From NCBI GenBank assembly GCA_017609605.1, contig JAFCDO010000003.1:24470-88469 (forward strand): DNA of 64,000 nt, written 5' to 3'. The notes below the pieces were generated by a model. The model worked only from the letters and a program-made list of their open reading frames with translations. It was not told where the DNA came from and made no database searches. The translations under genes and the position numbers were made by a program. This DNA comes from Candidatus Parvarchaeota archaeon. GTDB lineage: Archaea; Nanobdellota; Nanobdellia; JAAOXT01. Below are positions 5,715 to 64,000 of the stretch, in pieces; position 1 is the first letter of the stretch; each line of letters starts with the position of its first letter.

Positions 5715-6184
5715 AAAAAGGAGACTTCACAGGAGTAGGCGTGGTAATAAGCACGCTAATCATAATGGGACTGCTTTTAGTGATGTCCATGTTCGTGGAC
5801 TCTGTTAGCATGCAAGCAATACTCTCAATAAAAGACGCTGAAACCAGCAGTATGTGCACAAACCTTCTTGAAAACCTTGTGAGCAGCGACTACTCAAAAA
5901 CAGGAATGACTCCGGACACATTCCTCAAACAAAAATACCAAAGTCTTTACAACAGGTCAGCGTCATACTTCGCGTTCCAAGAAGAACTTGAAAGAAACCC
6001 AGGGTTTGAGCAAAGCGTGGGAATGCACGTTCGCTTCGGCTCAAGCTCAGAGCTAAGAAGCATAATCAGCGATGAAGCCACCCAAAAATACGCGCTACAA
6101 TGCTTCATAAAAGTTTACTCGCCCTCAGGCGAGCCAACAATAGTTATGATGTTCAAAAAACAAGGGGTGACGTTCACGCCATGA
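5711..6184 (+). CDS. pilin-like protein (157 aa)
   Basis: ATGA start/stop overlap with the previous gene. N-terminus is MKKG|DFTGVGVVISTLIIMGLLLVMSMFV. Confidence 0.6.
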   Translation: MKKGDFTGVGVVISTLIIMGLLLVMSMFVDSVSMQAILSIKDAETSSMCTNLLENLVSSDYSKTGMTPDTFLKQKYQSLYNRSASYFAFQEELERNPGFEQSVGMHVRFGSSSELRSIISDEATQKYALQCFIKVYSPSGEPTIVMMFKKQGVTFTP

Positions 6185-11534: not shown

Positions 11535-12239
11535 ATGAAACTACAAAAAAAAGATTTTGTTAAATTAGATTATACCGGCACGGTCAAAGAAACAGGAAAA
11601 GTGTTTGATACAACCAAGGAAAGCGTAGCCAAAAAAGAAGAGTTCTACGACTCAAGACAAAAATACGCGCCAATAACAATAATCATTGGCGAAAACCAGA
11701 TTCTAAAAGGAATAGATGATTCCCTGCTGGAACACGAGGAAGGAGATGAATACGAAACAAGCGTCAAACCAGAAGACGGTTTCGGACCAAGACGCAAACA
11801 ATTAATCAAACTAATACCCAGAAAATACTTCGAAGAACACAACATAACTCCTGTGGCAGGTCTTGCGATAAGCGTAGACAACATGCAAGGTCTGATAAGA
11901 ACAGTCAGCGGAGGAAGAATAATAGTGGACTTCAACAATCCTTTAGCGGGCAAGGAATTATGTTATAAAATAAAAATACTGAATAAAATCAGTAAAATCT
12001 CGGAAAAAGCAAAATCTATCGTGACATACTTTACAAGGATTAGCGAGCCAAGAATTGAGTTAAAACAAGGCGAATTAACAATAAGCACTAAAATAGAGCT
12101 TCCAGAATTCCTAAAAAACAAGATAACTCAAATCATACAAACCAACTTAAACGAGATAAAGAAAGTAAAATACAAGATAACAAAACAACACGTGGAAAAC
12201 ACACAACTAAAAAAAGAGAAAAAATCAAAAAATGATTAA
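11535..12239 (+). CDS. FKBP-type peptidyl-prolyl cis-trans isomerase (archaeal FKBP with insert-in-flap, plus C-terminal extension)
   Basis: VKLDYTGTVKETGKVFDTT, GENQILKGIDDSLLEHEEGDE and IIVDFNNPLAGKEL are FKBP/SlyD-type blocks. Confidence 0.85.
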   Translation: MKLQKKDFVKLDYTGTVKETGKVFDTTKESVAKKEEFYDSRQKYAPITIIIGENQILKGIDDSLLEHEEGDEYETSVKPEDGFGPRRKQLIKLIPRKYFEEHNITPVAGLAISVDNMQGLIRTVSGGRIIVDFNNPLAGKELCYKIKILNKISKISEKAKSIVTYFTRISEPRIELKQGELTISTKIELPEFLKNKITQIIQTNLNEIKKVKYKITKQHVENTQLKKEKKSKND

Positions 12240-12382
12240 AAAAAATCAAAAACTTAATCTTTTATCTTAAAATGTGTGTTTAATCAATACAAGTTCTATT
12301 TCTGAGTGCATTAAAATTTATAAGTGAAAGCCACTTGTTTTAATGATACATAATCAATTAAATAGGAGAATAAAATAAAAAA

Positions 12383-15116: not shown

Positions 15117-15671
15117 TTAATCCCGTTGACTAAACCACGCGTTAATCGCGTTCAACTTGTGTTCTAACCTGTTTTCTAAATAATAATCTAATGAATCCTG
15201 TCTTGGCTCGAATAATTGAAATTCCTTTGTATCAAGTGAGGATTTGCTTAATACGTTGACTTTCGTGACGTCTCCTTTCATTCCTGCACGAAAACTTCTT
15301 CCAGCAGGAACAACTCCTGTCGCGTTTGTCAAACGGTTGTTCGTGCCGCAACCTAGATCAAGAACCACGAACTGCTCAAGAGGGAATGGAGGATTTAAAC
15401 CAAACCTTACGTAACGCGTCAATATTGGTTCATCGTATAACACTTTTTCTTCTTCCAAGTTTTTTTCTTCAGTTTCTAAATACGCTTGTTGCCACACCCA
15501 ATTCGCAAAAAACCTTGTTTCCATTCCTAACTCGTTAAAATCAGTGCACGCGTAATATAGTCCGCACTTTTTCTTGAAATAAACCCATTTCTTTTTGTCC
15601 TCTTCGTTCACGATTTTAGGAGTGTAGTAATAGTCAGCAAAACCTATGCTACCTTTTTTAGAAAGAAACAT
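15117..15671 (-). CDS. hypothetical protein (184 aa) inserted antisense into the L11-L1 cluster
   Basis: ORF with a TATA-like motif at 15693-15707 upstream. No family recognised; the VLDLGCGTN string alone is insufficient for a methyltransferase call. Confidence 0.45.
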   Translation of the reverse strand: MFLSKKGSIGFADYYYTPKIVNEEDKKKWVYFKKKCGLYYACTDFNELGMETRFFANWVWQQAYLETEEKNLEEEKVLYDEPILTRYVRFGLNPPFPLEQFVVLDLGCGTNNRLTNATGVVPAGRSFRAGMKGDVTKVNVLSKSSLDTKEFQLFEPRQDSLDYYLENRLEHKLNAINAWFSQRD

Positions 15672-15692
15672 TATCCTGAACTGAAGAAAAAA

Positions 15693-15707
15693 CGGTTTTT
15701 AAAAACG
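15693..15707 (-). promoter_or_regulatory. TATA-box-like element (near-palindromic CGGTTTTTAAAAACG)
   Basis: Lies 22-36 nt upstream of the minus-strand ATG at 15671. Confidence 0.45.
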
Positions 15708-15904
15708 TTACGAAACAGAAGAGTGTAAAGAAGTTTTATATTATCATAACCTTTTTTTTTAAAAAGAATGATTAAAGCAATTGCTGGGCGTCGATTTTTA
15801 AACCCACGCCATTTAATTCTTTTTCCGACCGTAAATTTTATAAAACCCATACTCGTCTTTCAAAAGCACTGCTTACAAGCAGGAGGTTAACCACCGAAAA
15901 AAAA

Positions 15905-16552: not shown

Positions 16553-17448
16553 AAGAGTGGAAAAAAGAACGGGTAAAAGAAATCAGTGAAAAAATTAAAG
16601 ATTACAAGGTTTTAGGAATAGTTGATTTTCACGCCTTGCCAGCCAAACAATTACAAATCATGAAGAAAAAACTCAAAGAGAAAGGAGTAATCTTGTTAAT
16701 GGCTCGTAAAAGAATTCTGAAGCGGGTTTTAGAAGCTTCTGATAAAAAAAACATCAAAGAACTAATAAAAAATTTAGGGTTAATGCCAGCACTTATTCTA
16801 TCCAGCTTGGACCCGTTTAGACTCGCAAAAATAATTAATGATAACAAATCCCCTGCACTAGCCAAAGCAGGCCAAACATCTCCAAAAGACATTGTAGCCT
16901 CAGCAGGGCCCACACCATTCACTCCCGGACCAATAATAGGAGAACTAGGCATTTTAGGAATCAAAACAAAGGTTGAGGCAGGAAAATTAACCATAACCCA
17001 AGACGTAATAGTAGTCAAGAAAGAAGAAATCATAAGCGAAGTGGCTGCAAGCATTCTGAGGAGGCTTGGCATAGAACCCATGGAGATAGGCTTGACCATA
17101 AAAGCTGTTTGGGAAAAAGGCATCATATTCAGCGCAGATCAGTTAAAAATAGACACGAAAGAATACACTGAAAATCTTAAACTAGCTCACGCAACAGCCT
17201 TAGCGCTGTCGCTTAACGCGAACATCCCAATAAAAGAAACAATGAGCGCGTTATTGCAAAAACTTCACTCGCAAGCCATAGCACTGTCCATGAACACTGG
17301 CTTCCCGACAAAACAGACCAGAGACGAAATACTAAGAAAAGCGGAAGGCCAAGCAATGCAGTTAGCCAGAGGAGTGCAGGAGAAAGATAGGAACGCGCTG
17401 AGCGAACAACTAAACGAGATAATAGTCAAATCAATACTTGGAGGATAA
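16546..17448 (+). CDS. rplP0: ribosomal stalk protein uL10 (P0)
   Basis: KEWKKERVKEISEKIKDYKVLGIVDFHALPAKQLQIMKKKLK. 300 aa, located between L1 and P1. Confidence 0.9.
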   Translation: MVKEWKKERVKEISEKIKDYKVLGIVDFHALPAKQLQIMKKKLKEKGVILLMARKRILKRVLEASDKKNIKELIKNLGLMPALILSSLDPFRLAKIINDNKSPALAKAGQTSPKDIVASAGPTPFTPGPIIGELGILGIKTKVEAGKLTITQDVIVVKKEEIISEVAASILRRLGIEPMEIGLTIKAVWEKGIIFSADQLKIDTKEYTENLKLAHATALALSLNANIPIKETMSALLQKLHSQAIALSMNTGFPTKQTRDEILRKAEGQAMQLARGVQEKDRNALSEQLNEIIVKSILGG

Positions 17449-23218: not shown

Positions 23219-23791
23219 TCAAGAATTCATTTTTTCAATTTCTTTTTTTCTTTTTTTCATTTCTTCATCAAATATTTTTTTTGCAGTTGAAGTGTAAAAC
23301 CGATTATTCTTCATCCGAGACTCCCAATGTTTTTTGGGAGTTTCCTCATATGCTTTAACATTTGAATAAAAATCTTCTTTGAAACAGTCTGACAGAGTAT
23401 CAGCGTCAATCAACAATCTTTTGTCAAGTTCTTCAGGGTTTTGAAACTTATGAGCTACGACAATATCAATTATTCTTTCAATTCTTTCTTTTTTATAACC
23501 TAAACCGCCCAAAATCTTTGAGATTATTTCGGGCGCATATTTTATGTGTAACCTTAATGCTTCAATCCTACCCTCTTCATTCTGGCTTCTTTGCAATTTT
23601 ATTGGAACTTTAGCCCATCCAACATCATGAACTATCGCTGCAGGAACCAGTATGTTTCTATCCTCTTCCTCTTTTTTTAGAAGTAATTCCATTGCCTTGG
23701 TAACTGATTTAGAGTGGAGAACAAAATTTTTTCTAACACCTTTTTTCAGATAAGGAATTGTTAAACCCCACAATTCTTTGAATTGTTCCAT
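23219..23791 (-). CDS. HD-domain phosphohydrolase
   Basis: H...HD motif (VLHSKSV...AAIVHDVGW) and a later D (LIDADTLS). Confidence 0.6.
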   Translation of the reverse strand: MEQFKELWGLTIPYLKKGVRKNFVLHSKSVTKAMELLLKKEEEDRNILVPAAIVHDVGWAKVPIKLQRSQNEEGRIEALRLHIKYAPEIISKILGGLGYKKERIERIIDIVVAHKFQNPEELDKRLLIDADTLSDCFKEDFYSNVKAYEETPKKHWESRMKNNRFYTSTAKKIFDEEMKKRKKEIEKMNS

Positions 23792-23795
23792 AATA

Positions 23796-23870
23796 TGGAC
23801 CCGGAGGGATTTGAACCCCCGACATACAGCTTAGAAGGCTGTCGCGCTATCCAGGCTGCGCCACGGGTCC
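23796..23870 (-). tRNA. tRNA-Arg (anticodon TCT)
   Basis: Reverse complement folds by hand as a cloverleaf: GGACCCG TG GCGC AGCCTGGATA GCGC G ACAGC CTTCTAA GCTGT ATGTC GGGGG TTCAAAT CCCTC CGGGTCC A. All four stems pair. Confidence 0.9.
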
Positions 23871-23895
23871 CTGTCAAAACATTTAATTCTTTTGC

Positions 23896-23909
23896 AAGGT
23901 TTTTAAACC
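23896..23909 (+). promoter_or_regulatory. TATA-box-like element upstream of the surface-protein gene
   Basis: aaggtttttaaacc is centred about 25 nt upstream of the ATG at 23927. Confidence 0.45.
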
Positions 23910-23926
23910 TTTTTACCTTTAAAATA

Positions 23927-26209
23927 ATGAAATCAAAACGTTTAAAAAACCTTTTCGAATCCTTTTCAAACACGATAATGAAACCACGATTAATAATAAC
24001 CACACTACTCGTAGCGTTCCTGTTCTGCACAGTTATTGCTGCAGATTATGACGTGGAAAACGTTAGGGCCAGTCCTTCAATTGTTGGCGAGGACGAACAC
24101 TTGCTGTTGTGGGGAAGAATAGATAACAACAATTTATCAGAATCCACTACTCCGGATAGACTCGAAATAGAAATAACTGATGGGGACGGCGACCACATCA
24201 GAAACTTGGACCCGCAATTCCACGCTGATGACGGCAATGACAAAGCGTTAAGCACAGGAGCTTTCATAACAAAAATAGAAACAGACGACTTGGATGAAGG
24301 AGAAACCTATTTTATAACCCTTAAAATAGATGGATTAATTCATTATTCCAGACAATTAACCCTTCAAAACACTGAAAGAAACGTGACCATAAAAATATTG
24401 AGCACGTGGCTTGACAATCACGATTTTCACTCAAACCTAAAACTGACTAACGAAAAAGATTACGCTCAAACAATCAATATAACGTTCATTGGCAACGGAG
24501 AAGAACAAACCCAAACCATTGATTTGGAGGCGGGCGAGACCAAATACGTGGAATCCATAATGGATTTCAACGATTTGAACATAAACACTGGAGCCAACAT
24601 AATAGTTGTTACAGCAGACTATCCAGGAGGAGAAGCCTTAACTGATTACGCTTTCTTCATGAAAGGCACAAAAGACTATTCTAATTATTACGACGCTGAA
24701 ATAACGTGTCAAGAGGAAGTGATAAGAAAAGAAACCATAAACCAAGTTCCGATAACCATTAAGAATGCGGGAAGCCTTACAACAGAATTCTCGCTATCAG
24801 TAATCTCAGGCGACCTGAAAGACCAGACTTCAGTCAGTGAAGAAAGAATCACGCTAAAACCCGGGGAAACAGGCAAAATAAACCTCGTTGTCACGGTTCC
24901 ATCAAACTTGACATTAAACCAAACCAGTTTTGATTTAAGAGTGGAGTACGCGGGAAAAACCGCTGAAAAAACTGTTTACCTAAACATTGAAGAAAAAGAG
25001 AAAACCCATTACTTCACCGTAGAAGGCGTGACCGTAGAAAAAGATGTTTACTTTATAGGCGAATTCTTGAACGGGACGATACAACTCAAAAACAGGGGAG
25101 ATTTCGACGAACAAATAACCGTGGAATACGGTTACTCCAGCGGAGTTTTAGGAACCACAGGAGTTATAAGCTTGACAAAAGGTCAGACAAAAAACATTCC
25201 ATTTTACATATATCTTCCAGGATACGTTGAGAACAACGAACTCGAATTAACGTTCACTGCAACCTCTAAAAATTATGTTTTCACAGCGAAAACTAACATA
25301 ACAGTGCAAACACCAGTGCACAATTTCTTTCTGGTTGAGTCATCTCCTTACAGAAACGAAATGGAACAAGGAGACAAACTAAACCTTTCCTTCGTCCTGT
25401 TTAATATAGGTAATAATGATTCATACACAATAAAAGCTGATTGGCCTTACTCAGATCTCCCACCAAAATTCAATCTCAACCAAGGAGAGCATAAAACGAT
25501 TACCGTGACTGTTCACGCTCCAAGCGAGTACGACGTGACAGGAGAGAACATTATAACAATCAAAGTCTGCTCAGCTCATGTTGAAACTTGCCAAGAAAAA
25601 AGGTATTTGGTCAACGTGAAAACCGTGCAAGAATCAAGCGTTGTAACATTCCCTGAAACCAATGAACTCTTCTTTGAAGGAGAAATCATTGATTATGATT
25701 TCGTGATTAAGAACGCGGAAGACGTTGCAAGAAGGTATCAAATTCAAGTAACGGGCTTACCAAAAGACTCTTTCACACTCCTGCCAGGAAGCGATGAAAC
25801 AATTTTTCGCGATCAATCCGTTCAATTTAAGGTTAGGATAAATAACTTAAAATCAGGATTCCACGAAACAACGATAAGCGTTTACGAAGAAGGAGAACTC
25901 ATGGGCGCTAAACAAATAACTGTTCAGTCCAAAAGCAACGGTTTAACAGGCCAGTTCGTAAACGTCGTTAGCGCAGGAGTACCCGTAATCATGGTAATAA
26001 TTGTGGGCGGCTTAATCAGTGGTTGGATGTACATGAGAGGAAGGGAAACAAAAGTTTATGATTACTGGAAAAAACCTGCAACCAAGAGTGATGAAAAACA
26101 AAAAACCAAGAAAGTGATGAGCGACCTCAGAAAAAAAGTGCTTGGCCTAAAAGAAAACCTTAACCCAAAACAAGTAAAACCTTATACCGACTACTTTAAA
26201 AAAGTGTGA
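23927..26209 (+). CDS. repeat-domain cell-surface protein with C-terminal membrane anchor (S-layer/adhesin candidate)
   Basis: The track start at 23783 overlaps tRNA-Arg, so I prefer the ATG at 23927 (or 23978). Signal-like KPRLIITTLLVAFLFCTVIAADYD. Repeated beta-type segments of the form ..I.[IL]KN.G...... (ITIKNAGSLTTEFSLSV, IQLKNRGDFDEQITVEY, FVLFNIGNNDSYTIKA, FVIKNAEDVARRYQIQV) are reminiscent of CARDB/NEW3-like domains. C-terminal TM helix VPVIMVIIVGGLISGWMYM plus a Lys-rich tail. Confidence 0.6.
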   Translation: MKSKRLKNLFESFSNTIMKPRLIITTLLVAFLFCTVIAADYDVENVRASPSIVGEDEHLLLWGRIDNNNLSESTTPDRLEIEITDGDGDHIRNLDPQFHADDGNDKALSTGAFITKIETDDLDEGETYFITLKIDGLIHYSRQLTLQNTERNVTIKILSTWLDNHDFHSNLKLTNEKDYAQTINITFIGNGEEQTQTIDLEAGETKYVESIMDFNDLNINTGANIIVVTADYPGGEALTDYAFFMKGTKDYSNYYDAEITCQEEVIRKETINQVPITIKNAGSLTTEFSLSVISGDLKDQTSVSEERITLKPGETGKINLVVTVPSNLTLNQTSFDLRVEYAGKTAEKTVYLNIEEKEKTHYFTVEGVTVEKDVYFIGEFLNGTIQLKNRGDFDEQITVEYGYSSGVLGTTGVISLTKGQTKNIPFYIYLPGYVENNELELTFTATSKNYVFTAKTNITVQTPVHNFFLVESSPYRNEMEQGDKLNLSFVLFNIGNNDSYTIKADWPYSDLPPKFNLNQGEHKTITVTVHAPSEYDVTGENIITIKVCSAHVETCQEKRYLVNVKTVQESSVVTFPETNELFFEGEIIDYDFVIKNAEDVARRYQIQVTGLPKDSFTLLPGSDETIFRDQSVQFKVRINNLKSGFHETTISVYEEGELMGAKQITVQSKSNGLTGQFVNVVSAGVPVIMVIIVGGLISGWMYMRGRETKVYDYWKKPATKSDEKQKTKKVMSDLRKKVLGLKENLNPKQVKPYTDYFKKV

Positions 26210-54246: not shown

Positions 54247-56784
54247 ATGAGTGAAGATAAGGATTACTTATTGCTTGTTTTATCACTAGTTTTTCTTACA
54301 GTCACTGCAGGAGTTTACTCCATCTCATTGTTTTACACGCTGCTGCCCTGCTTCCTAATACTTCACTTTTACAAGAAAGACTTGTCAATTCTTGAAAAGT
54401 TCTTGTTTTCAGTGCCTTTATCCGCGGTCATGATTTACTGGCCCTACTTTGTTTTGACCAGAGGTTTTCAAATAGTCTTAAAAAGTTATTTCCTATTCGA
54501 GCCTGCCTTGCTGTCAGGGATTATCTTATTATTAAATTTGGAGCAGGTTAAAAAATTCAAGTTTAAATTACCAAGCATTAACGTCAAACCATCGTTTCTT
54601 CTCATAACAGCTTTGTTTTTTGCCGGTTTTTTCGCTGTCCATTTTCCTTTCCTGACTGCGAACGCTAATCCAATGACCCTTGGCGCTAAATGGGTTTACG
54701 AAACTCATGAACTCGTGCTTAGCGTATTGAACGGAGAATTCATTGGTTGGAGCACGAAATGGTACAGTGGGATGACCACGTTTTACTCTTACCCCCCGTT
54801 AAGCTATTTGATTCCTGCGGCGCAGTCAGCGGTAACAGCGTTAACTGCTTGGAAAAATTTGAACGTGAGTCTTTACGTGTTTTCACTTTTGTTCGGGTTA
54901 TCGTTGTACGCTTTTCTCAAGAATTTTAAAATCAGTGAAGAAATATCTCTCACGCTCGCGTTAGTTGGGGTTGTGCTTCCGATAACCGTGAAGGTTTCTG
55001 AGGTCACGAAAACCATAATGGACCAATTCTTTATCTGTTTGTTTTTGCTCGTCCTTTTGCGTTTTTTTAAAAAACCCAGGAAGAACGCATTCCTCCTGTC
55101 AATCACCTTGTTCGCGTGGTTCATGAATTATTATTTCAACGTTTACGTGTTAGTATTCCCTTTGCTCATTTCAATCTTTCTTTTCTTCAAAACTTTTGAG
55201 GACAAGAAAGGCGTGCTTTTTTGGGGTGCGCTGAGCGCAGGAATCGCGATCCTGTTGAGCATGGCTTGGATGCTGCCTTTTTTCTCTTGGCTGGATTACT
55301 TTCCTTTCAAGTATCAGGAAGGTGCTTGGATGAGCATAATGGATTCTCCCACAAAATTTTTTGAAATAGCTGCCAGTCATTTGGATCCTTCAAAAGTTGA
55401 GTACGATATTCCGAGCTTGACAGGTCTGAGCCCTCAGTTCTTTTATTTGGGTTTGGCCAGTGTGATAATCCTTTTTTTGGTGTCTAAGAAGAAGTTGAGC
55501 GAGCAGAATTTTCCTGGAATCCTGTCAATAATCCTGTTAGCTTACATTTTTTTGCAGTTCACCCCGTTCTGGAAGTTTATCCCAAAATATGACATATTGT
55601 TCGGTAGAGTGTACCAGTATTATTTGTTCATTCCTTTATTTGCTTTCAGCATTGGCAGGTTAGTGCAGGATTATTGGGAGAGTCAAGGCGCGCTCAAACA
55701 AGCGATTTTCATAACATTATTTTTAATATTGTTTTCTAACGTGTTCATGTTTTCGTATAACTTGTCAAGGTCTTTCATCGCCGAGTCAGCCATGACGGAT
55801 AGAACCGAGTTCGAACTTCTTTACAACACTCTTGATCAGTACCCTGAAGGCAGGTTCGTCGTGTTCGGAATTTTTGGGCCTGGCATAATCCCTGGAATCA
55901 CTTTTTGGACGGGTAAACCCGCGTTCGCGGGATATGGTTTCGAATCTCACTGCACGCTAAGGGTTTACGAGAACACTATCCTGCCAGTCCAGCAGGCGAG
56001 CAACGACTTTTTGAAACCAAATAACGGGCACTTGGCTTACAACCTTTTCAAAAAAGCAGGGGTTGACATAGTAATCAGTAACGTGTGCTCGCCAATCGGT
56101 CTAGCTTCTTACAAGGTTTTCTACTCTGATTACGTGAGGCAGGGTAATGAGACTTGCGCTAAGGTTTTTCACATGAACGAGACATACTTGGTTGAAAAAC
56201 CTTACTTAACCAAAGTGTTCTCGCCAACAATTGACGGCGAATCCCTGCGAGAAGCAACCATTGAAGGAGTGTTGCAGAGAAAAGGGGGTTACAAGTTCGA
56301 CTTCCTTGTCAACGATTCCCTTCCACTGGAGGATTACGCGTTCGCGCTGAGCGACGGGGTCGTGGACATGGACTTAATGGGTTTTAATGGAACCCTGTTA
56401 TTCACTGGTTTGGAGGAAGACTTTGAAGGTGTTGATTACGCTGACAAGATTTATTTGGGAACAGGTGTTGAAAACTTTGAGGATGTTAACGCCACTCCAA
56501 GAGAAATGTTTTTTCAGGAGAAAAACGATTTATTCGTGGTTCGCAACGTTAAGCCCGGTGATTTAGTTCTTTTCAAGCAAGCTTTTTTCCCTAAATGGCG
56601 CGCTTACCAGTCTGGCAAGGAACTGCCGATTTTAGAAACTTATCAGGGTTACATGCTTGTCAAAGCCAGAACCATCGGAGTGATAACTTTCACGGTCGAA
56701 ACTCATTTCGTCGAGTTCTTGGGAGCACTGCTTTCACTGCTCGGTTTTGCGGGGGTGTTATTGCTTGCAAAAAATAGTTTTTGA
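54247..56784 (+). CDS. large polytopic membrane protein with C-terminal soluble domain (GT-C-like glycosyltransferase candidate)
   Basis: 845 aa. More than 12 hydrophobic helices in the first ~560 aa, then a soluble domain and a final TM helix. I saw no WWDYG (AglB/STT3) motif. Confidence 0.35.
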   Translation: MSEDKDYLLLVLSLVFLTVTAGVYSISLFYTLLPCFLILHFYKKDLSILEKFLFSVPLSAVMIYWPYFVLTRGFQIVLKSYFLFEPALLSGIILLLNLEQVKKFKFKLPSINVKPSFLLITALFFAGFFAVHFPFLTANANPMTLGAKWVYETHELVLSVLNGEFIGWSTKWYSGMTTFYSYPPLSYLIPAAQSAVTALTAWKNLNVSLYVFSLLFGLSLYAFLKNFKISEEISLTLALVGVVLPITVKVSEVTKTIMDQFFICLFLLVLLRFFKKPRKNAFLLSITLFAWFMNYYFNVYVLVFPLLISIFLFFKTFEDKKGVLFWGALSAGIAILLSMAWMLPFFSWLDYFPFKYQEGAWMSIMDSPTKFFEIAASHLDPSKVEYDIPSLTGLSPQFFYLGLASVIILFLVSKKKLSEQNFPGILSIILLAYIFLQFTPFWKFIPKYDILFGRVYQYYLFIPLFAFSIGRLVQDYWESQGALKQAIFITLFLILFSNVFMFSYNLSRSFIAESAMTDRTEFELLYNTLDQYPEGRFVVFGIFGPGIIPGITFWTGKPAFAGYGFESHCTLRVYENTILPVQQASNDFLKPNNGHLAYNLFKKAGVDIVISNVCSPIGLASYKVFYSDYVRQGNETCAKVFHMNETYLVEKPYLTKVFSPTIDGESLREATIEGVLQRKGGYKFDFLVNDSLPLEDYAFALSDGVVDMDLMGFNGTLLFTGLEEDFEGVDYADKIYLGTGVENFEDVNATPREMFFQEKNDLFVVRNVKPGDLVLFKQAFFPKWRAYQSGKELPILETYQGYMLVKARTIGVITFTVETHFVEFLGALLSLLGFAGVLLLAKNSF

Positions 56785-57920: not shown

Positions 57921-58364
57921 ATGGAAAAAAGTAAACCTAAAAAAGAAGAGAAAGAATCTGTCAAGAAAGAAGAGATTCAAAAAGAAGAAGTGAAGACAGA
58001 AGAGACTAGCTCGAAAACAGATGAGAAAAAGAAGTCCAAACCTTTTAAGATTAAGGTTGTTGAGAAGAAGGAGAATAAGCTTTTGGGCAGGGAAGAAGTT
58101 TTTTTCGAAATCAATTTCAAAGAGTCCAGCACTCCTCGAAGAGAGGATGTTAGGAGCAAGCTTATAGCGACAATTAACTCTAAGCCAGGCTTAACAATTA
58201 TACTTCCTCTTAAAACAAGTTTTGGCAGGACTATTGCGTTAGGCGCGGCTCACGTTTATAAGGATGAGAAACAGATGAGGCGAGTCTGTTTGCATTACTT
58301 GTTGGTTCGTTCAGGACTGGCCGAGAAGAAAGCCAAGAAAAAGAAGAAAGGGGTGAAGAAGTAA
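57921..58364 (+). CDS. rps24e: ribosomal protein eS24 with ~45-aa Lys/Glu-rich N-terminal extension
   Basis: Core: [44 protein letters not shown]...[13 protein letters not shown]-terminus: [28 protein letters not shown]... Confidence 0.9.
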
Positions 58365-58366
58365 GA

Positions 58367-58669
58367 ATGGCAGAAGAAGAGCCTACTGTTGAAGCTCCAG
58401 TAAGCGCTGTTAAGAAGAAGGAGGCTAAGGGGAAGAAGATTCGTACGAAGCGCCCGACGAGCAAGAAATGGAGTTTTTATAAGGTTGAGGGTGGTAAGGT
58501 TTCTAAGTCTAGGAAGAGTTGCCCTAAGTGCGGTCAAGCCACTTTCCTCGCGTCGCACAAGAACCGTGAGTCTTGCGGTAAGTGTGGTTACACAGTGTTT
58601 AAGACAAGCCCAAAACCCGAACCGGAGGCAAAACCTGAAAGCACGCCCGAACCAGTGAAGCAGCAATAA
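58367..58669 (+). CDS. rps27ae: ribosomal protein eS31 (S27ae) with N- and C-terminal extensions
   Basis: Zinc ribbon [27 protein letters not shown], preceded by YKVEGGKV. The C-terminal tail is Pro/Glu-rich: [22 protein letters not shown]. Confidence 0.9.
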
Positions 58670-58708
58670 ATCTAAAACTTTTTTAACCCAGAAAAACAAG
58701 ATTTTATC

Positions 58709-61700
58709 ATGCCTAGTGTAACATCTGATGAAAGCGTTGAAGAGATTAAACTGCCACATAATCTCACAACATTTTTTGACAAAGATCTAAAAGAGATAAT
58801 CCTTATTGATAAAAAGAAAATCCCTATTGATGAAGCGTTAATAACGATAACTTCCCCATTAATAGACAGTACGAATCTAGGAAGAATCGTTAGCACCAGA
58901 ATAAAAATGCTATCAGGGGTTGGGGCAGTATCCAAACCAGTAATAAAAAACAATCAAATAACCCTAGAATTTCTGGAACAAGTAAAAGACGTATTAAAGG
59001 AATACAAGCCAAACTTCATGATAAAAGGAGAAACAATTCCTTTCCTCCAAATAGAAGTCAAAAAAAATGATGTCATAATCACTGCAGGAAGCCAGACAAC
59101 TTCCTTCAAAGAGAATGGGGAAGAACTATTATCCTTCGACCAAAGAAACACTGGGCCAAGACTGTTCGACGTAACTCAAACTTCAGGAGAAATAACAGTC
59201 AATCCAAAAAAATTGGAAACAAACAAAGGGCTAGTTGACTTCAAACAAAAAACAAAGGAAAAAAAAACGGAAAGAGAGATATCAGTTGAGAAAACGAAAC
59301 AACGTGAAGAAAAAAAAGGAATTAGCGTCGCGTTGGAGAAAATCAATAGTTTAATCTTAATGTTCAGAAAAGCTCCCGGATTAGAGCTTTTCAAAGAAGT
59401 AATGAATGCTTTAACCGAGAACGCCAATCGAATAGATAAAAAGAATTTATCCCGATTTAATTCACGATTAACTCAAATCATTTCCGCTTGGCTGGAAAAA
59501 GAACAATTAGGTGTGGCAATCCAAATCTTGGATTTATTAATAAAATACAATAAGTTACTAATCGAAAGAAAGTTGGATAACCAAACAGTTAAAACCATTT
59601 TGGGTATAAGGGGAGGAAGGATAACATCTTGGATTCCTAGATTAAGTAAGAATGAAATAAGTTTAGAGCAATTGTCGGATATTATAATAGATTATTTGCT
59701 GGATTCTATAGCTTCAGAACAGACGGGCGGTGAAAAGATTATCGCTCAAACAATTAATATTAACTTCCTAAACACAGCCATTGAGTACGTGGCTTCAAAC
59801 AAAACACCTGAAAACATCGGAATCCTGATGGAACACTTAGGAAAAATAAGGTTTATACCAGACTTTGAATTAGACTCAAAACTCATAAAAGATATCGAAA
59901 ATAGATTGAAAGCATTATCTGGCAAAGAACCAGTTCCTACTCCTTCAGACCCGCATGTTTCGGACAAAAAAATAAAGAAACTAAAAGAGATTTCAGAAGA
60001 GCTTGAAAAATTAAGAGAACACATTCAAAAACTAAAAATATCTAATTTCATATCCAAAAAAGGCATTGCAAAAAAAGGTGAATACGCAAAGATAAAAAAA
60101 GGATTCCAAAAAGCGTGGGAGAAAATAAAAAAACTCTCCAAAGAAGGGCTCGAAGACATGCCAGGACAATACCTTGAATTGTTCGACGAACTATTTGAAA
60201 CACGAAAACAACTTTTGGATAAATCCTACACCATTTATAGAGGCTTACTCGACAATATTTACAAATACTTCAACGAATCGGATTTAAAAAAGATAAAAGA
60301 AGTCAAAGATTACTTCCCCCAACTTCTTCTAAGCGAATCCCAAATGTTAAGCGAGTACGTTGAATTTCTTAAAGAAGAAGGAACAAAGAAAAGTGTTCGT
60401 AAAGGATTTGAGCATTATTACGTTGGAAAAATAGAGTATTACACTAATAATTTAAGAGAGATAAAAAAGTATGTCTCGAACATTCCAGAAATAACCAAAA
60501 AAGAGGATTTTAACGAACTATCCTTTTTAATCACTGAAATAGACACGACATCAAAAAGAATTGAACAACTCATAGAACAACTTATAACTAATTCTAGAGC
60601 AAGTCAACCAAGACCACAACCCCCTTACATTGAAATGTGTTTGGAAAACCTGGAAAGCTTGCTAAGCAGTATCCAAAAAACGATCTTGCAACAAGGAACA
60701 AGACAAATCTTCGAAAAATCCTCAAGAGAATTATCAAGATTGAATAATAAATTATTTGAATTCGTTGAAACATGGCAACTCAATAAAGAAACCAAAAAAA
60801 GAGTTCTTGAACGACTTAACATTTATCAGAAAAAACTTGAAGCTTCCATAGAGCAAACATCAAAAAAGAAGGACCAGACATCTCTAAAAGATCAGTTCTA
60901 CTTGCTTGAAGTCCTTCTTAGAAAATTGATGAAGAAAAACAAAACCAGAATAAAAAAGTTTGAACAAAAACCATTAACTCTCATCCCACCTGCAGAAGAA
61001 CCAGAAGACACTGGCTTGATAAGCGAAGAACCATCAGCAGAAGAGCATGTTTCTCCATCACCAGCTTTGGATTTCAGTAAACTAAACGAACTACTCGGAT
61101 ATATTGCAGCGAACTTAAGCGAGCTATTGAATAATAATTTCATAAAAAAATATGGTTTCAAACCCGAACCTGTCGAAGAAGCGATAAAATACGCGAATCA
61201 AATCATTGAAGCAGTAGAAAAATATTCTCCAGACAAGCTAAAACCAAAATTGCAAGAAAACTACAATAGCTTTGTAAAATCTTTGACAGGTGTTCATGAT
61301 GAATTACTGCTCATTTACTCAAAAGAAAAAAAAGGGCAAGAACTGTTCCAACTAAAAGAAGTAGGATTTGTTCTGCAAGATATCAATAATTTGAAAACAA
61401 CTCTTTTTGCAGACCAAAAAGTGACTCAAGAAAAAATAGACAACATTGTTGTAGGATTGAACAATTTATTCTTTCACTTGGACCAATTCACGAATAAACT
61501 GAACGATATTATTTTGCAACCAAAACCTTTAACACCAGAAATCCCTCTAAAAAAAGAAGAAAAAACCCTACCCCTTCCTCCAACTCGTAAACCATTTAAT
61601 TGGAACGAACTCTTACAAGAACTAAATAAGGTAGGAACTGTTTTAACCGGAATAAAAAATTCAGATACAGAAAAGGTGTTAGGGTTATCTGGACTGCAAG

Positions 61701-64000
61701 AACTCATCACGTCAATCGACAACGCTTCAGGTACCATAACTTCTGGCGTTTTTATCAATATTCAAAGAAGCTTAAAAGGAATAATTCCAAGAACTGCCGA
61801 GCTTACTCGTTTATTAGAACCTGTTACCCTGAGAATCACTGACAAAAACTTTGAACGCGCTTTGAACAAAATCAAGAGTTTTGGGCTGCCAGCAAGTTTT
61901 TACGGCAGGTTGACGACCATTGACGAGCGCGAACTAAACCAAACGGGAATCAAAAAAGCTTCAGAATACGTCAAAAAAACATTGCTAGAAGGCTTGGAAG
62001 AAATCAAAAAAATACTCGAAAACTTCACGCCAAAACCAGTAACACCTCCAAAACCAAGTGTTGACCTAAAAGTCTTAAAACCCTTTCTTGAAAACATTAG
62101 AAAAACCTTGGAAACCTGTTCCAAACATGAATTTACCCTAACCCATTCAAATTTCAAAGAAATTATTGAAAAAGTTAAGACACTCGTTGAAGGAATAGTT
62201 AATGGTTTGGGGAGTGATTTCAAAACAATTATCAAACAATTAGAATTTCTTAGAGTTTACACATCTGAAATCTACGGCTTCTTGGTAATGCAATCAAATG
62301 ATAAAGCATTCAGAGACTGGTTTGGCAAAGAGAAGAAAAGTTTTGACAAAAACCTAGAAGCCCTACGAGAATTCGTGAACAACCCAGACATGCTCAGCTT
62401 CTATACAGGGGACGCTAACAAACTGGAATCGGCAAAAAAAGCTTTGAAAAAACTGAATGACGCTTTAGAAAACTTATGCGTCATGCTTAAAGACTGGAAA
62501 CCACCTCGACGCGAAATTCCTTCTATCCCCCCAGAAACCCCCCTAAAAGCAGAACCTGAAACAAAAACTGAATCCGAACTCAAACTTGACAAACTCATCG
62601 AAAAAATCGGGGAAATAAGTTTAACAATAGAAGACCTGCAAAAAATACCAAAGGTTCGACAAACAAACACAAAGCAAGTTGTCGATGTACTCAACATATG
62701 GAAAAGAATATTCAGTATAAGAAAACTAACGGACACAACAAGACAAACCGAAAAGATAGGTTTTTCCCAAACATTCTTCCAAGCCATACAAGCACTATCC
62801 ACAAACCTATTCAACGAACTGCAAAACACTTTCAAAGAAATGTACGCGAACAGACAAGCAATCCTAACCCAAAACCTGCAAGGACTCAACAAATCCTGCC
62901 AAGAAATAATTGGATTGTTATCAAACCCTACACAGGATAACATAAACCGAGCAGTTGAAAAACTAGGTGTTAAAGGAAATTTCTTGACAAAACTCTTCAA
63001 CGCAAAAGAAATACTGGAAACCTACCCGCTAGAAGATTATTACCTAAAAATCAATCATTCAATTGAGGAACTCAAAAACCTAAAAAAAGAAGATATCATA
63101 AACAGGCTTTCAAGAATCGCAAGCATAACTAAAAGAATTTACTTGTACTGCGATGAACTCAAAAAATCTGCGGAAAGTCTAAAAGAAGATTATTATGAAA
63201 AACTTGAAGAACTGGGCAAAGAATTCTTCGACTCTGCAATAAAATGGTTCAATAAACATGAAATAACCCCAACTACTTCGGGTTTAGACAAACTTTCAGA
63301 ACAACTCCAATACTTAATCCAATGTTTAGATGGAGTGAAAAAAGCTGAAAAAACTAGGGAAAAAGCTGAAGAATTATTGGCGATCACACGAAGGATAACA
63401 ACAACTCCTGCCTCAACCCCTTTAACGACCACGAAACCAGGAGAAACGAGAACATCAATAGACTTGAATTCCGAAGAGTTCAAAAAAGCGTTCGACAAGC
63501 TCCAAGAAAGCCTAGCAGAACTAGCAATCCTAACTGAAGGCCTTTTACGAGACGTTTCGGAAACACAACAACAAACAGTTCAAAACCTCATGCAACAAAT
63601 GTTCAAAACACAAAACCAGATAATTCAAGGAATCAACACTCAAATACAACTACCCTTCATCGAACAAAACCTAATAAATACGATACAAGTCTTCACAACA
63701 ACAGTGAGTCAACTACTCGTCCTGATACCTGACAAGGAGTTACACGACAACATAGTCAACGAAACAAGAAAAATAAATAAGGAAATAAAACAATACCACC
63801 TCAGAAACGTTTTCAACCAAGAAAAACTCACTCCAAAATACGTTGAAACAATAGCGAAAAAAATCAAGGACGACTTAGGCTTAATTATAACAGCGATAAA
63901 AGAATACCTGCAAAAAACGGTAGAAAAACCCGAACCCAAAAGCTATGAAGATAGAGTAAAACGTGTAAACGAGCTAATCAAAGAATTCAGAAAACAAAAA
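58709..64000 (+). CDS. giant helical repeat protein, first 1764 aa (3' end beyond window)
   Basis: Own codon-by-codon read from the ATG at 58709 reaches position 64000 in frame (5292 nt = 1764 codons) with no stop. The in-frame upstream stop is at 58673-58675. CTTTTTTAACCC lies about 25 nt upstream. It is absent from the ORF track (no stop in window); only short minus-strand shadow ORFs are listed there. Confidence 0.8.
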   Translation, partial: MPSVTSDESVEEIKLPHNLTTFFDKDLKEIILIDKKKIPIDEALITITSPLIDSTNLGRIVSTRIKMLSGVGAVSKPVIKNNQITLEFLEQVKDVLKEYKPNFMIKGETIPFLQIEVKKNDVIITAGSQTTSFKENGEELLSFDQRNTGPRLFDVTQTSGEITVNPKKLETNKGLVDFKQKTKEKKTEREISVEKTKQREEKKGISVALEKINSLILMFRKAPGLELFKEVMNALTENANRIDKKNLSRFNSRLTQIISAWLEKEQLGVAIQILDLLIKYNKLLIERKLDNQTVKTILGIRGGRITSWIPRLSKNEISLEQLSDIIIDYLLDSIASEQTGGEKIIAQTININFLNTAIEYVASNKTPENIGILMEHLGKIRFIPDFELDSKLIKDIENRLKALSGKEPVPTPSDPHVSDKKIKKLKEISEELEKLREHIQKLKISNFISKKGIAKKGEYAKIKKGFQKAWEKIKKLSKEGLEDMPGQYLELFDELFETRKQLLDKSYTIYRGLLDNIYKYFNESDLKKIKEVKDYFPQLLLSESQMLSEYVEFLKEEGTKKSVRKGFEHYYVGKIEYYTNNLREIKKYVSNIPEITKKEDFNELSFLITEIDTTSKRIEQLIEQLITNSRASQPRPQPPYIEMCLENLESLLSSIQKTILQQGTRQIFEKSSRELSRLNNKLFEFVETWQLNKETKKRVLERLNIYQKKLEASIEQTSKKKDQTSLKDQFYLLEVLLRKLMKKNKTRIKKFEQKPLTLIPPAEEPEDTGLISEEPSAEEHVSPSPALDFSKLNELLGYIAANLSELLNNNFIKKYGFKPEPVEEAIKYANQIIEAVEKYSPDKLKPKLQENYNSFVKSLTGVHDELLLIYSKEKKGQELFQLKEVGFVLQDINNLKTTLFADQKVTQEKIDNIVVGLNNLFFHLDQFTNKLNDIILQPKPLTPEIPLKKEEKTLPLPPTRKPFNWNELLQELNKVGTVLTGIKNSDTEKVLGLSGLQELITSIDNASGTITSGVFINIQRSLKGIIPRTAELTRLLEPVTLRITDKNFERALNKIKSFGLPASFYGRLTTIDERELNQTGIKKASEYVKKTLLEGLEEIKKILENFTPKPVTPPKPSVDLKVLKPFLENIRKTLETCSKHEFTLTHSNFKEIIEKVKTLVEGIVNGLGSDFKTIIKQLEFLRVYTSEIYGFLVMQSNDKAFRDWFGKEKKSFDKNLEALREFVNNPDMLSFYTGDANKLESAKKALKKLNDALENLCVMLKDWKPPRREIPSIPPETPLKAEPETKTESELKLDKLIEKIGEISLTIEDLQKIPKVRQTNTKQVVDVLNIWKRIFSIRKLTDTTRQTEKIGFSQTFFQAIQALSTNLFNELQNTFKEMYANRQAILTQNLQGLNKSCQEIIGLLSNPTQDNINRAVEKLGVKGNFLTKLFNAKEILETYPLEDYYLKINHSIEELKNLKKEDIINRLSRIASITKRIYLYCDELKKSAESLKEDYYEKLEELGKEFFDSAIKWFNKHEITPTTSGLDKLSEQLQYLIQCLDGVKKAEKTREKAEELLAITRRITTTPASTPLTTTKPGETRTSIDLNSEEFKKAFDKLQESLAELAILTEGLLRDVSETQQQTVQNLMQQMFKTQNQIIQGINTQIQLPFIEQNLINTIQVFTTTVSQLLVLIPDKELHDNIVNETRKINKEIKQYHLRNVFNQEKLTPKYVETIAKKIKDDLGLIITAIKEYLQKTVEKPEPKSYEDRVKRVNELIKEFRKQK

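Follow-up and report, generated by a model that had tools for sequence, protein, structure and literature searches.

The 64,000-nucleotide stretch of DNA analysed here (the window; contig JAFCDO010000003.1 of a Candidatus Parvarchaeota archaeon, positions 24,470–88,469 of the forward strand) ends inside a giant gene, and comparison with related genomes identifies this gene as a real, lineage-restricted gene of a Nanoarchaeota (DPANN) archaeon. Its product has a modular helical architecture, and the searches described below set it apart as a new family restricted to the closest relatives. Aligned with one another, its alleles are mosaics with breakpoints in linkers and with discordant relationships among the modules. 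We hold this structural and evolutionary description with high confidence. The way in which the new family evolves, by mosaic variation of cassettes, is known from elsewhere, but it was not to be expected in a signal-less archaeal protein encoded within an essential operon.

The giant gene and its orthologs

Direct translation of the plus strand, on which all features of the giant gene lie, gives 1,764 stop-free codons from the ATG at 58,709 to position 64,000, with the frame still open at the window edge. The closest in-frame stop upstream is at 58,673, and the ATG at 58,709 is the sole start candidate before 58,907. Under the base composition of the region, a stop-free run of this length has a probability of ~3e-57, and the remaining five frames carry 42–171 stops each across the same region. 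An earlier note, made from the letters of this DNA, had described such an uninterrupted frame, starting directly after the eS24-eS31 genes, missing from the accompanying track of open reading frames (ORFs) and continuing past the window, and in each of these points it was right. The mechanical ORF list lacks the frame because the tool leaves out ORFs that run off an end, Pfam assigns the two upstream genes to eS24 (57,921–58,364) and eS31/S27a (58,367–58,669), and a complete ortholog extends well beyond the visible part. The composition of the 1,764-residue fragment (K 12.3%, L 12.2%, E 10.3%, I 9.1%, N 5.8%, C 0.3%, W 0.5%) likewise bears out the description of a Lys/Glu/Leu/Asn/Ile-rich protein with almost no Cys or Trp. 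Three minus-strand ORFs lie within the frame (61,900–62,235, 62,401–63,000 and 63,193–63,498); none has a counterpart in the sister genome introduced below, and for this reason they are regarded as antisense shadows.

A word-indexed search of 5.8 billion protein clusters returned one relative, a 2,380-residue hypothetical protein (P0001) from the Nanoarchaeota metagenome-assembled genome (MAG) GCA_018221045.1, isolate DPANNHV_H2.bin.114, which comes from a hydrothermal-vent sample. An exhaustive phmmer search with residues 1–1,200 against 1.84 billion representative proteins found P0001 alone, and a scan of the genome contig collection led to the same sister MAG only. Searches of Pfam, NCBIfam, PHROGs and PADLOC with the window protein, its ortholog and the fragment from a third genome (L003, below) were empty or sub-threshold, and PDB sequences gave no match either to the single proteins or to a three-sequence profile of the head domain. 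The giant protein had no match among IMG/VR viral contigs, GenBank phages or plasmids, two scans of JGI metagenome contigs (with peptide patterns, and with the exact 45 nt of promoter plus start) returned nothing, and nothing was found with the C-terminal 700 residues of P0001. These results accord with the earlier reading, which had recognised no family, and it is on them that we base the designation as a new family. PMC8091004, likely the source paper of the sister MAG, mentions neither the bin nor the protein.

The sister locus (L001) is syntenic with the window in the order FtsZ, AsnC, GatD, GatE, methyltransferase, an 845-residue protein without assigned family, PIN, Rpo7, Spt4, eS24, eS31, giant gene and Kae1. 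The 10 kb 5′ of the giant gene are collinear between the two at 95.5% DNA identity (blastn), and the neighbouring genes have synonymous divergences (dS) of 0.08–0.28, with ratios of nonsynonymous to synonymous divergence (dN/dS) of mostly ~0.1 (range 0.02–0.35). Given this flank identity and the low dS of the neighbours, the two genomes belong to the same or to sister species. Residue 1,764 of the window protein pairs with residue 1,680 of the 2,380 in P0001, so that ~700 codons are expected past the window end; on this count the full-length gene is estimated at about 2,400–2,500 codons (~7.2–7.5 kb), with the first ~72% inside the window.

A third copy was reached through an Rpo7 homolog in L003 (Logan SRR10018917), which has the same gene order and flanks 65–76% identical to the window. 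Its ortholog begins after eS31 and stays open for at least 965 codons before running off the contig, whose end (14,521) falls inside the giant gene. The window may also end at a contig end, and we infer that assemblies break here from strain heterogeneity. A chance ORF or a pseudogene is excluded by three long frames that remain intact in spite of the saturated divergence described below, together with a dN/dS of less than 1.

Helical modules and mosaic alleles

Structure prediction with AlphaFold2 was carried out in two runs on a two-sequence alignment, and both models are of low confidence (mean predicted local distance difference test score, pLDDT, of 46 and 40). Given this and the lack of a significant Foldseek match, only secondary structure and module boundaries were used. 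On that basis, the soluble-looking product is predicted to consist of a β-rich head of ~170 residues followed by at least nine independently folding helical bundles of 110–270 residues, joined by flexible Pro-rich linkers of 7–30 residues. The models place ~11 β strands in residues 43–166 (pLDDT <35) and helices only thereafter, in line with the ~170-residue β-looking head and helical remainder that had been surmised from the translation. Linkers L1–L6 were delimited by proline density, and L7 and L8 from the translation together with predicted coil; predicted coil coincides exactly with the linker positions.

The protein opens with 15 conserved residues (MPSVTSDESVEEIKL; 58,709–58,753), within whose codons the 95.5% DNA identity of the flank drops abruptly, 44 nt into the gene, at a left breakpoint at ~58,752. 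They are followed by the variable β-rich domain (residues 16–185; 58,754–59,263), which is 28–31% identical to P0001, and by conserved block C1, equal to module M1 (residues 186–405; 59,264–59,923), for which ten helices in an α-solenoid-like arrangement are predicted (residues 187–403, pLDDT 50–78). Linker L1 (residues 406–416; 59,924–59,956), with a breakpoint at residue 413, leads to variable helical module M2 (residues 417–630; 59,957–60,598), and linker L2 (residues 631–640; 60,599–60,628) to M3 (residues 641–755; 60,629–60,973), a variable module with predicted helices. The Pro/Glu-rich linker L3 (residues 756–785; 60,974–61,063), predicted as coil and with a breakpoint at residue 764, precedes conserved block C2, equal to module M4 (residues 786–937; 61,064–61,519), which ends at linker L4 (residues 938–962; 61,520–61,594; breakpoint at residue 952).

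Beyond C2 the variable modules continue with M5 (residues 963–1,105; 61,595–62,023), linker L5 (residues 1,106–1,118; 62,024–62,062; Pro-rich and predicted coil) and M6 (residues 1,119–1,263; 62,063–62,497). The latter is a predicted five-helix bundle and the best-predicted module, with a pLDDT of 55–81 over residues ~1,120–1,260. Linker L6 (residues 1,264–1,288; 62,498–62,572), again Pro-rich and predicted coil, joins it to variable modules M7a and M7b (residues 1,289–1,560; 62,573–63,388). Linker L7 (residues 1,561–1,582, ...TTTPASTPLTTTKPGETRTS...; 63,389–63,454) is Thr/Pro-rich, lies below the Pro-density cut-off and was placed from the translation and predicted coil. It leads into variable module M8 (residues 1,583–1,738; 63,455–63,922), where a breakpoint at residue ~1,730 marks the return to high identity. 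The window closes with the short linker L8 (EKPEPKS, residues 1,739–1,745) and the start of conserved block C3, or module M9, cut by the window end (63,923–64,000; 93% nucleotide and 89% amino acid identity to the sister allele).

Fold searches with the predicted models returned nothing from the PDB at a Foldseek E-value of 1e-3 or better. The top matches, all non-significant, linked C1 to designed helical repeats and 14-3-3, and the remaining helical part to vinculin, α-catenin, talin and CCM3/FAT bundles (E≥0.13); the vinculin/α-catenin matches have E 0.13 and a TM-score <0.3 on a model with a mean pLDDT of 40, and they have no Pfam match beside them. Smith–Waterman comparison of the modules of the window protein with one another, scored against shuffled sequences, gave z mostly <4, and hhalign gave a probability <10% for all module pairs. 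The modules are thus not detectably homologous to one another, and this sets the product apart from classical tandem-repeat proteins of the spectrin kind. Spectrin repeats were also sought by name and rejected (no PF00435 match at E≤1, no internal periodicity). The beads-on-a-string arrangement of bundles fits a linker or scaffold, one in which periodic repeats of the spectrin type are absent.

The sole significant internal similarity in the family is seen in P0001, between residues ~690–780 and ~1,840–1,930 (L001 ~12,070–12,340 and ~15,520–15,790). There modules 2 and 9 are alike in their last parts (hhalign probability 86%, E 5e-6; E 3e-5 when the L003 protein was compared with P0001 by BLAST), a resemblance that we read as the trace of a module duplication.

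At the DNA level, the window and the sister locus align within the gene only in islands (blastn), at 59,247–59,947 (92%), 60,998–61,563 (85%) and 63,896–64,000 (93%), the last of which maps to L001 14,936–15,040. At the protein level, blocks of ~90% identity to P0001 (residues 1–15, 186–410, 767–946 and 1,731–1,764 and beyond) alternate with blocks of 20–30%. In the variable blocks nonsynonymous divergence (dN) is ~0.73 and dS is saturated, against a dS of 0.08–0.28 in the neighbouring genes; the time since the strains separated is too short for such blocks to have diverged where they stand, and they must be old alleles or imports joined by recombination. Nor are the conserved blocks uniform. 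C1 shows 92% nucleotide and 88–89% amino acid identity to P0001, with dS 0.12 and dN/dS 0.49, and C2 has 85% and 90–91%, with dS 0.42 and dN/dS 0.115, a disparity in dS that is expected of a recombining mosaic. The 34 visible codons of C3 have a dN/dS of 0.55, and C1 is not detectable in the L003 allele. Three of the five internal breakpoints fall in Pro-rich linkers, which account for 8% of the sequence (binomial P=0.005), and if the β/α junction is counted, four of five lie at boundaries (P=3e-4).

The genealogies of the modules contradict that of the genomes. The head domain is homologous across all three genomes, but the P0001 and L003 copies are close (43%, E 8.5e-35) whereas the window copy is more distant, diverging from its P0001 counterpart at the same dN of 0.73 and saturated dS as the variable blocks. 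Likewise, module 2 of P0001 is 37% identical to that of L003 (E 3e-45), whereas window M2 relates to both with a weak Smith–Waterman z of 4.6–5.6 and without a significant BLAST match to P0001. M3 has no counterpart in the P0001 or L003 allele. M5 (aligned over window residues 923–1,103) is homologous to L003 residues 784–955 (29% identity, E 2e-9, z 10.6) and has no match in P0001, and M6 shows weak homology to P0001 residues 1,140–1,300 (z 9.9, 30% identity). M7a, which contains a further blastn island (62,576–62,617, mapping to L001 12,950–12,991), matches P0001 residues 983–1,103 (35% identity, E 1e-7), which is the module directly after C2 in that protein, so that the module order is permuted; M8 matches P0001 residues 1,503–1,654 (32% identity, E 3e-13). 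Because the head and module 2 of P0001 are nearer to L003 than to the conspecific window allele, and M5 is shared with L003 only, the pool of modules must be older than the species or exchanged between them.

The variation thus combines alternation of conserved and diverged stretches, sharp breakpoints and discordance between blocks, which are the marks of a mosaic, variable-block gene, and it spans blocks of 0.5–2.4 kb with indels and module permutation. Sensitive self-blastn and Tandem Repeats Finder revealed no DNA repeats, silent donor cassettes or template/variable repeat pairs in the window or in L001, the latter program reporting from the window six weak short arrays only (periods 9–21, scores 31–67). 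A diversity-generating retroelement target was considered and rejected for want of a template/variable repeat pair, with not every ORF of the window screened for reverse transcriptase.

Insertion site, transcription and neighbouring genes

A survey of homologs and their neighbourhoods places the L001 ortholog between eS31 and kae1 and that of L003 after eS31, and finds the gene missing from four distant Nanoarchaeota loci representing three organisms (L004, L005, L006 and L007). These keep the PIN/Rpo7/Spt4/eS24/eS31 cluster, with Rpo7 57–63% identical; Kae1 follows directly after eS31 in L004, L005 and L006, and one small glycosyltransferase gene stands between them in L007. From these four junctions, the giant gene is best described as a lineage-specific insertion between eS31 and kae1 in a conserved informational cluster, PIN-Rpo7-Spt4-eS24-eS31-Kae1. 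It sits tightly there, with spacers of 39 nt upstream and 5 nt downstream (the latter read in L001), and no integrase, att-like repeats or other mobile or viral genes were found near it. The G+C content at third codon positions is 0.33 in conserved and variable parts alike, compared with 0.38–0.52 in the neighbouring genes, and this low value fits a foreign or otherwise atypical evolutionary history.

A TATA/BRE-like box (BRE, transcription factor B recognition element), TTTTTTAA within AAAACTTTTTTAACCC (58,680–58,687), lies 22–29 nt before the ATG, close to where a TATA-like element had been pointed out at about 25 nt, and would act as the promoter. The 39-nt spacer with the AAAACTTTTTTAACCC box is fully identical in L001, and a AAAACCTTTTTTAA box is found 30 nt before the ATG of the L003 ortholog, though the flanks there are so much less similar. 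Boxes of the type (A)AAAC(C)CTTTTTAA(CCC) recur at about −20 to −37 of many starts in the window, for example those at 11,535, 15,671 (minus strand), 47,331 (minus strand), 54,247 and 58,709. They are probably the BRE/TATA promoter consensus of the organism, many of whose genes appear leaderless or short-leadered. Retention of the box in L001 and L003, together with the similar boxes before other genes, supports a TATA/BRE promoter with a leaderless or near-leaderless mRNA, and the giant gene is probably transcribed in this way from its own box. A T6 run in the box region could terminate the upstream eS24-eS31 unit.

At the other end of the gene in L001, the kae1 ATG lies 5 nt past the giant gene stop (17,141–17,151), with a GGAAGG Shine–Dalgarno-like element and no A/T-rich box of its own before the start, and in the relatives kae1 overlaps or abuts eS31. 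These observations make it probable that kae1 is transcribed through the giant gene, whose mRNA in the window organism, by analogy with the ortholog, would probably carry kae1 as well. An essential gene thus appears to depend on transcription through a hypervariable gene of 7 kb, which argues indirectly that the giant gene itself is transcribed.

The C-terminal part of the product is known from P0001, where the last ~700 residues are strongly basic (net charge +55). At its very end (L001 17,020–17,143; P0001 ~2,340–2,380) the DNA is visibly GC-richer than in the rest of the gene, and the only cysteines of P0001, two in number, fall within the last ~40 residues as part of the pattern C-x3-HH...C-x3-H. 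One possibility is a small tail that binds metal, another a leftover of the eS31-kae1 junction as it was before the insertion.

Several other genes of the region deserve mention. The 845-residue protein in the same cluster (54,247–56,784, plus strand) has a sub-threshold match to PMT_2 (dolichyl-phosphate-mannose transferase-like, E 0.002) as its only match. The sister MAG has it at 96% identity (dN/dS 0.10), the L003 copy is 840 residues long, and in more distant relatives an H+-pyrophosphatase or other genes fill its place beside PIN/Rpo7. This appears to be another large gene specific to the clade. Three large consecutive plus-strand ORFs of 596, 888 and 788 residues (3,061–4,851, 6,100–8,766 and 8,759–11,125), with no Pfam match at E≤1e-5, are possibly further lineage-specific proteins. 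An 808-residue protein (23,783–26,209, plus strand), in which an Ig-like FixG_C/HYDIN-type domain is the only recognisable part, is a more conventional surface-protein candidate than the giant ORF. Downstream in the sister MAG are a ribbon-helix-helix antitoxin and ParE toxin pair (L001 23,814–24,282) and, ~10 kb 3′ of the giant gene, a 3,448-residue protein with Laminin_G_3, DUF2341 and DUF3047 domains (L001 26,884–27,143, where it runs off the locus). As this protein is of the classical DPANN surface type, the organism has at least two giants of very different kinds.

Proposed role and comparison with known systems

We tentatively propose, with somewhat less than even confidence, that the protein is a long flexible tether or scaffold at an interface of cell contact or of attack and defence, between host and symbiont or virus and host; both the role and the selection regime are deduced from the pattern of variation. 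That pattern resembles the mosaics of proteins under diversifying or frequency-dependent selection, and the mosaic alleles and module shuffling shift the weight towards diversifying or recombinational pressure and away from a plain housekeeping cytoskeleton. In such a scheme the modules would act as exchangeable cassettes, with crossovers by homologous recombination in or beside the DNA coding for the linkers. C1, C2 and C3 would be kept ~90% identical between strains, presumably for constant interactions, while other modules would be replaced wholesale from an old pool of alleles common to at least one other species, and the variable modules and head would make strain-specific contacts. An extended and more speculative version, which we think unlikely as a whole, would see in the signal-less ~270-kDa string of cassettes a strain-specific device for contact or evasion, an archaeal counterpart of antigenic variation fed by a trans-species pool and embedded in, and co-transcribed with, the eS31-kae1 operon. 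If it were true, a new family and a new way to act at a host interface would be at hand, by non-classical export or from the cytoplasmic side of a cell-cell bridge.

A number of observations weigh against an interface tether. Sequence inspection and Kyte–Doolittle hydropathy revealed no signal peptide, class III signal, transmembrane (TM) helix or anchor in any allele, the complete P0001 included. The N-termini (MPSVTSDESVEEIKL... in the window protein and P0001, MPQNKSSPTSKEQFKKKYGK... in L003) are acidic or polar without a hydrophobic stretch, and the highest 19-residue mean, 1.58, falls on a Thr/Gln-containing stretch far from the N-terminus. A surface or interface location would consequently need an export route other than those known, and a Sec/Tat-secreted or pilin-like archaeal surface protein was rejected for lack of a signal peptide or class III signal. 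N-glycosylation sequons are not enriched (13 observed, 12.9 expected), and the informational housekeeping neighbours give no hint of function. The alleles number three only, all from MAGs or assemblies, the saturated dS of the variable blocks makes selection and neutral recombination indistinguishable, and the module folds are provisional on models of low confidence. Among long proteins of Omnitrophota, a recent preprint (10.64898/2026.06.07.730766) reports that only 6.4% lack both a signal peptide and TM helices, an illustration of how unusual a signal-less giant is among the giants of episymbionts.

The weightiest alternative, which we consider rather unlikely but by no means negligible, is a purely intracellular scaffold or linker, either a rod of the talin, vinculin or spectrin kind or an analogue of the Mycoplasma attachment-organelle cytoskeleton, in which all that counts in most modules is their length and helical-bundle character; the mosaic would then reflect weak constraint and ordinary recombination between strains, with no selection for diversity. 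The absence of export signals and TM segments from all alleles speaks for it, as do the tandem helical bundles with flexible linkers, the identity of the top, non-significant Foldseek matches (vinculin, α-catenin, talin, CCM3/FAT) and a dN/dS <1 everywhere; the basic C-terminal ~700 residues of the ortholog could bind nucleic acid or membrane. However, weak constraint alone cannot saturate synonymous sites where the flanks have a dS of 0.08–0.28, and a housekeeping scaffold would be expected in the related Nanoarchaeota, which lack the gene. Spectrin-like periodicity and significant homology between modules are missing, and the Foldseek E-values, all ≥0.13, come from a low-confidence model. 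Were the protein intracellular, it would count among the few giant scaffolds of helical bundles in prokaryotes.

Module mosaicism is also typical of phage fibres and tape measures, and the lineage-specific insertion, a third-position G+C content clearly below that of host genes, the orphan status and a weak PHROG tape-measure match (phrog_167) would all suit a domesticated or passenger gene of mobile or viral origin, be it tape-measure-like or a virion or fibre protein, that exchanges modules with a mobile pool. We nevertheless regard such an origin as improbable. The phrog_167 match (E 0.0056, 15 bits) is below a sensible threshold for a low-complexity helical query of 1,764 residues, and with ribosomal, transcription and tRNA-modification genes as neighbours a phage tail tape-measure protein was rejected. 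Mobile or viral genes, integrase and att-like repeats are missing from the surroundings, where the short spacers leave the gene closely packed, the viral, phage and plasmid collections returned nothing, and the gene keeps its position even where flank identity has fallen to 65–76%. That the frame is non-functional, whether opened by chance, decaying as a pseudogene or chimerically assembled from strain variants, is very unlikely and for practical purposes excluded. The location at the window end, and at a contig end in L003, where assemblies are least reliable, and the want of known homologs outside the clade in the searches made could be cited in its favour; set against them are the vanishing probability of the open frame, complete 2,380-codon and partial 965+-codon orthologs that are uninterrupted though most blocks are saturated in divergence, dN/dS below 1 and a conserved promoter box, and chimerism would alter the combinations of modules, not the existence of several intact alleles. 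Least probable of all, with next to no likelihood, is an SMC/Rad50-type or other long coiled-coil ATPase, which the earlier note had raised and for which size and helical content alone speak. A regular-expression scan for Walker A (GxxxxGK[ST]) found none in the 1,764-residue fragment or in the complete ortholog, so that the defining NTPase motif is absent and the earlier statement that the protein has no signal peptide, TM helix or P-loop stands on both hydropathy and motif scans. Pfam and NCBIfam gave no SMC_N/Rad50 match, and in place of long coiled-coil arms the predicted helices, of 15–55 residues (mostly 15–30, maximum ~56), are bundled and interrupted by at least eight Pro-rich linkers, which refutes the suggestion.

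The prevailing view is that DPANN archaea live attached to hosts, but very few of the molecules of these interactions are known, and most candidates have been recognised by adhesion domains and secretion signals. Having no such domains, signals or homologs, the giant gene is invisible to screens of this kind, and yet it bears the signature expected of an interaction or conflict protein, with clade-specific gain, large coding investment, cassette mosaicism and modules that cross species. Its cassette-level mosaicism arises between genomes that are otherwise 95.5% identical, which makes the locus a tangible, testable place to study how strains of uncultivated archaea vary and recombine. Two practical points emerge: the largest gene of a window can go unseen when an ORF track omits frames cut off at an end, and genes of this kind tend to be where assemblies break.

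A TM anchor together with domains of three kinds, serine protease, laminin-G/adhesion and type III restriction enzyme, defines the SPEARE proteins of Nanohaloarchaeota (PMC6642349). They too are very large DPANN proteins, a major coding investment with a variable portion proposed for host contact (PMC6642349), but the window protein, P0001 and the L003 fragment have none of these defining domains and no TM segment, and membership was rejected. Spectrin (PF00435) is likewise a giant helical scaffold of serial bundles; its 106-residue periodicity, however, contrasts with modules of 110–270 residues and 4–6 helices that show no significant internal repeats. The talin, vinculin and α-catenin rods share with the giant protein the lack of signal and TM segment and the use of consecutive helical bundles as long flexible mechanical linkers, whereas the giant protein has no sequence or Pfam match to them, contains Pro-rich separators, is hypervariable between strains and is archaeal.

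The streptococcal M protein and pneumococcal PspA/PspC are α-helical proteins with a proline-rich region, and their mosaic alleles recombine under immune or diversifying selection. In their helical, Pro-rich make-up and in the recombinational origin of their conserved and hypervariable blocks they parallel the giant protein; unlike it, they are 5–10 times smaller bacterial proteins, built as uninterrupted coiled coils and equipped with Sec signal peptides and with wall or choline anchors, and it has neither signal nor anchor nor homology to them. In Plasmodium MSP1, alleles are dimorphic, recombination is confined to conserved segments and allelic lineages are older than species, and blocks of ~90% and ~20–30% identity alternate between alleles of one species as they do here, although MSP1 is a eukaryotic secreted antigen, anchored by glycosylphosphatidylinositol, without structural or sequence relation to the giant protein. 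The Mycoplasma proteins HMW1, HMW2 and HMW3 are large, signal-less and helical and/or Pro-rich, and form the internal scaffold of the attachment organelle. They have no homology to the giant protein, HMW2 is one long continuous coiled coil and, to our knowledge, none of the three has been reported as a module-shuffled mosaic. What the giant protein has in common with them is large size and the lack of a signal in an organism with a minimal genome; the HMW proteins remain inside the cell and yet serve cell contact.

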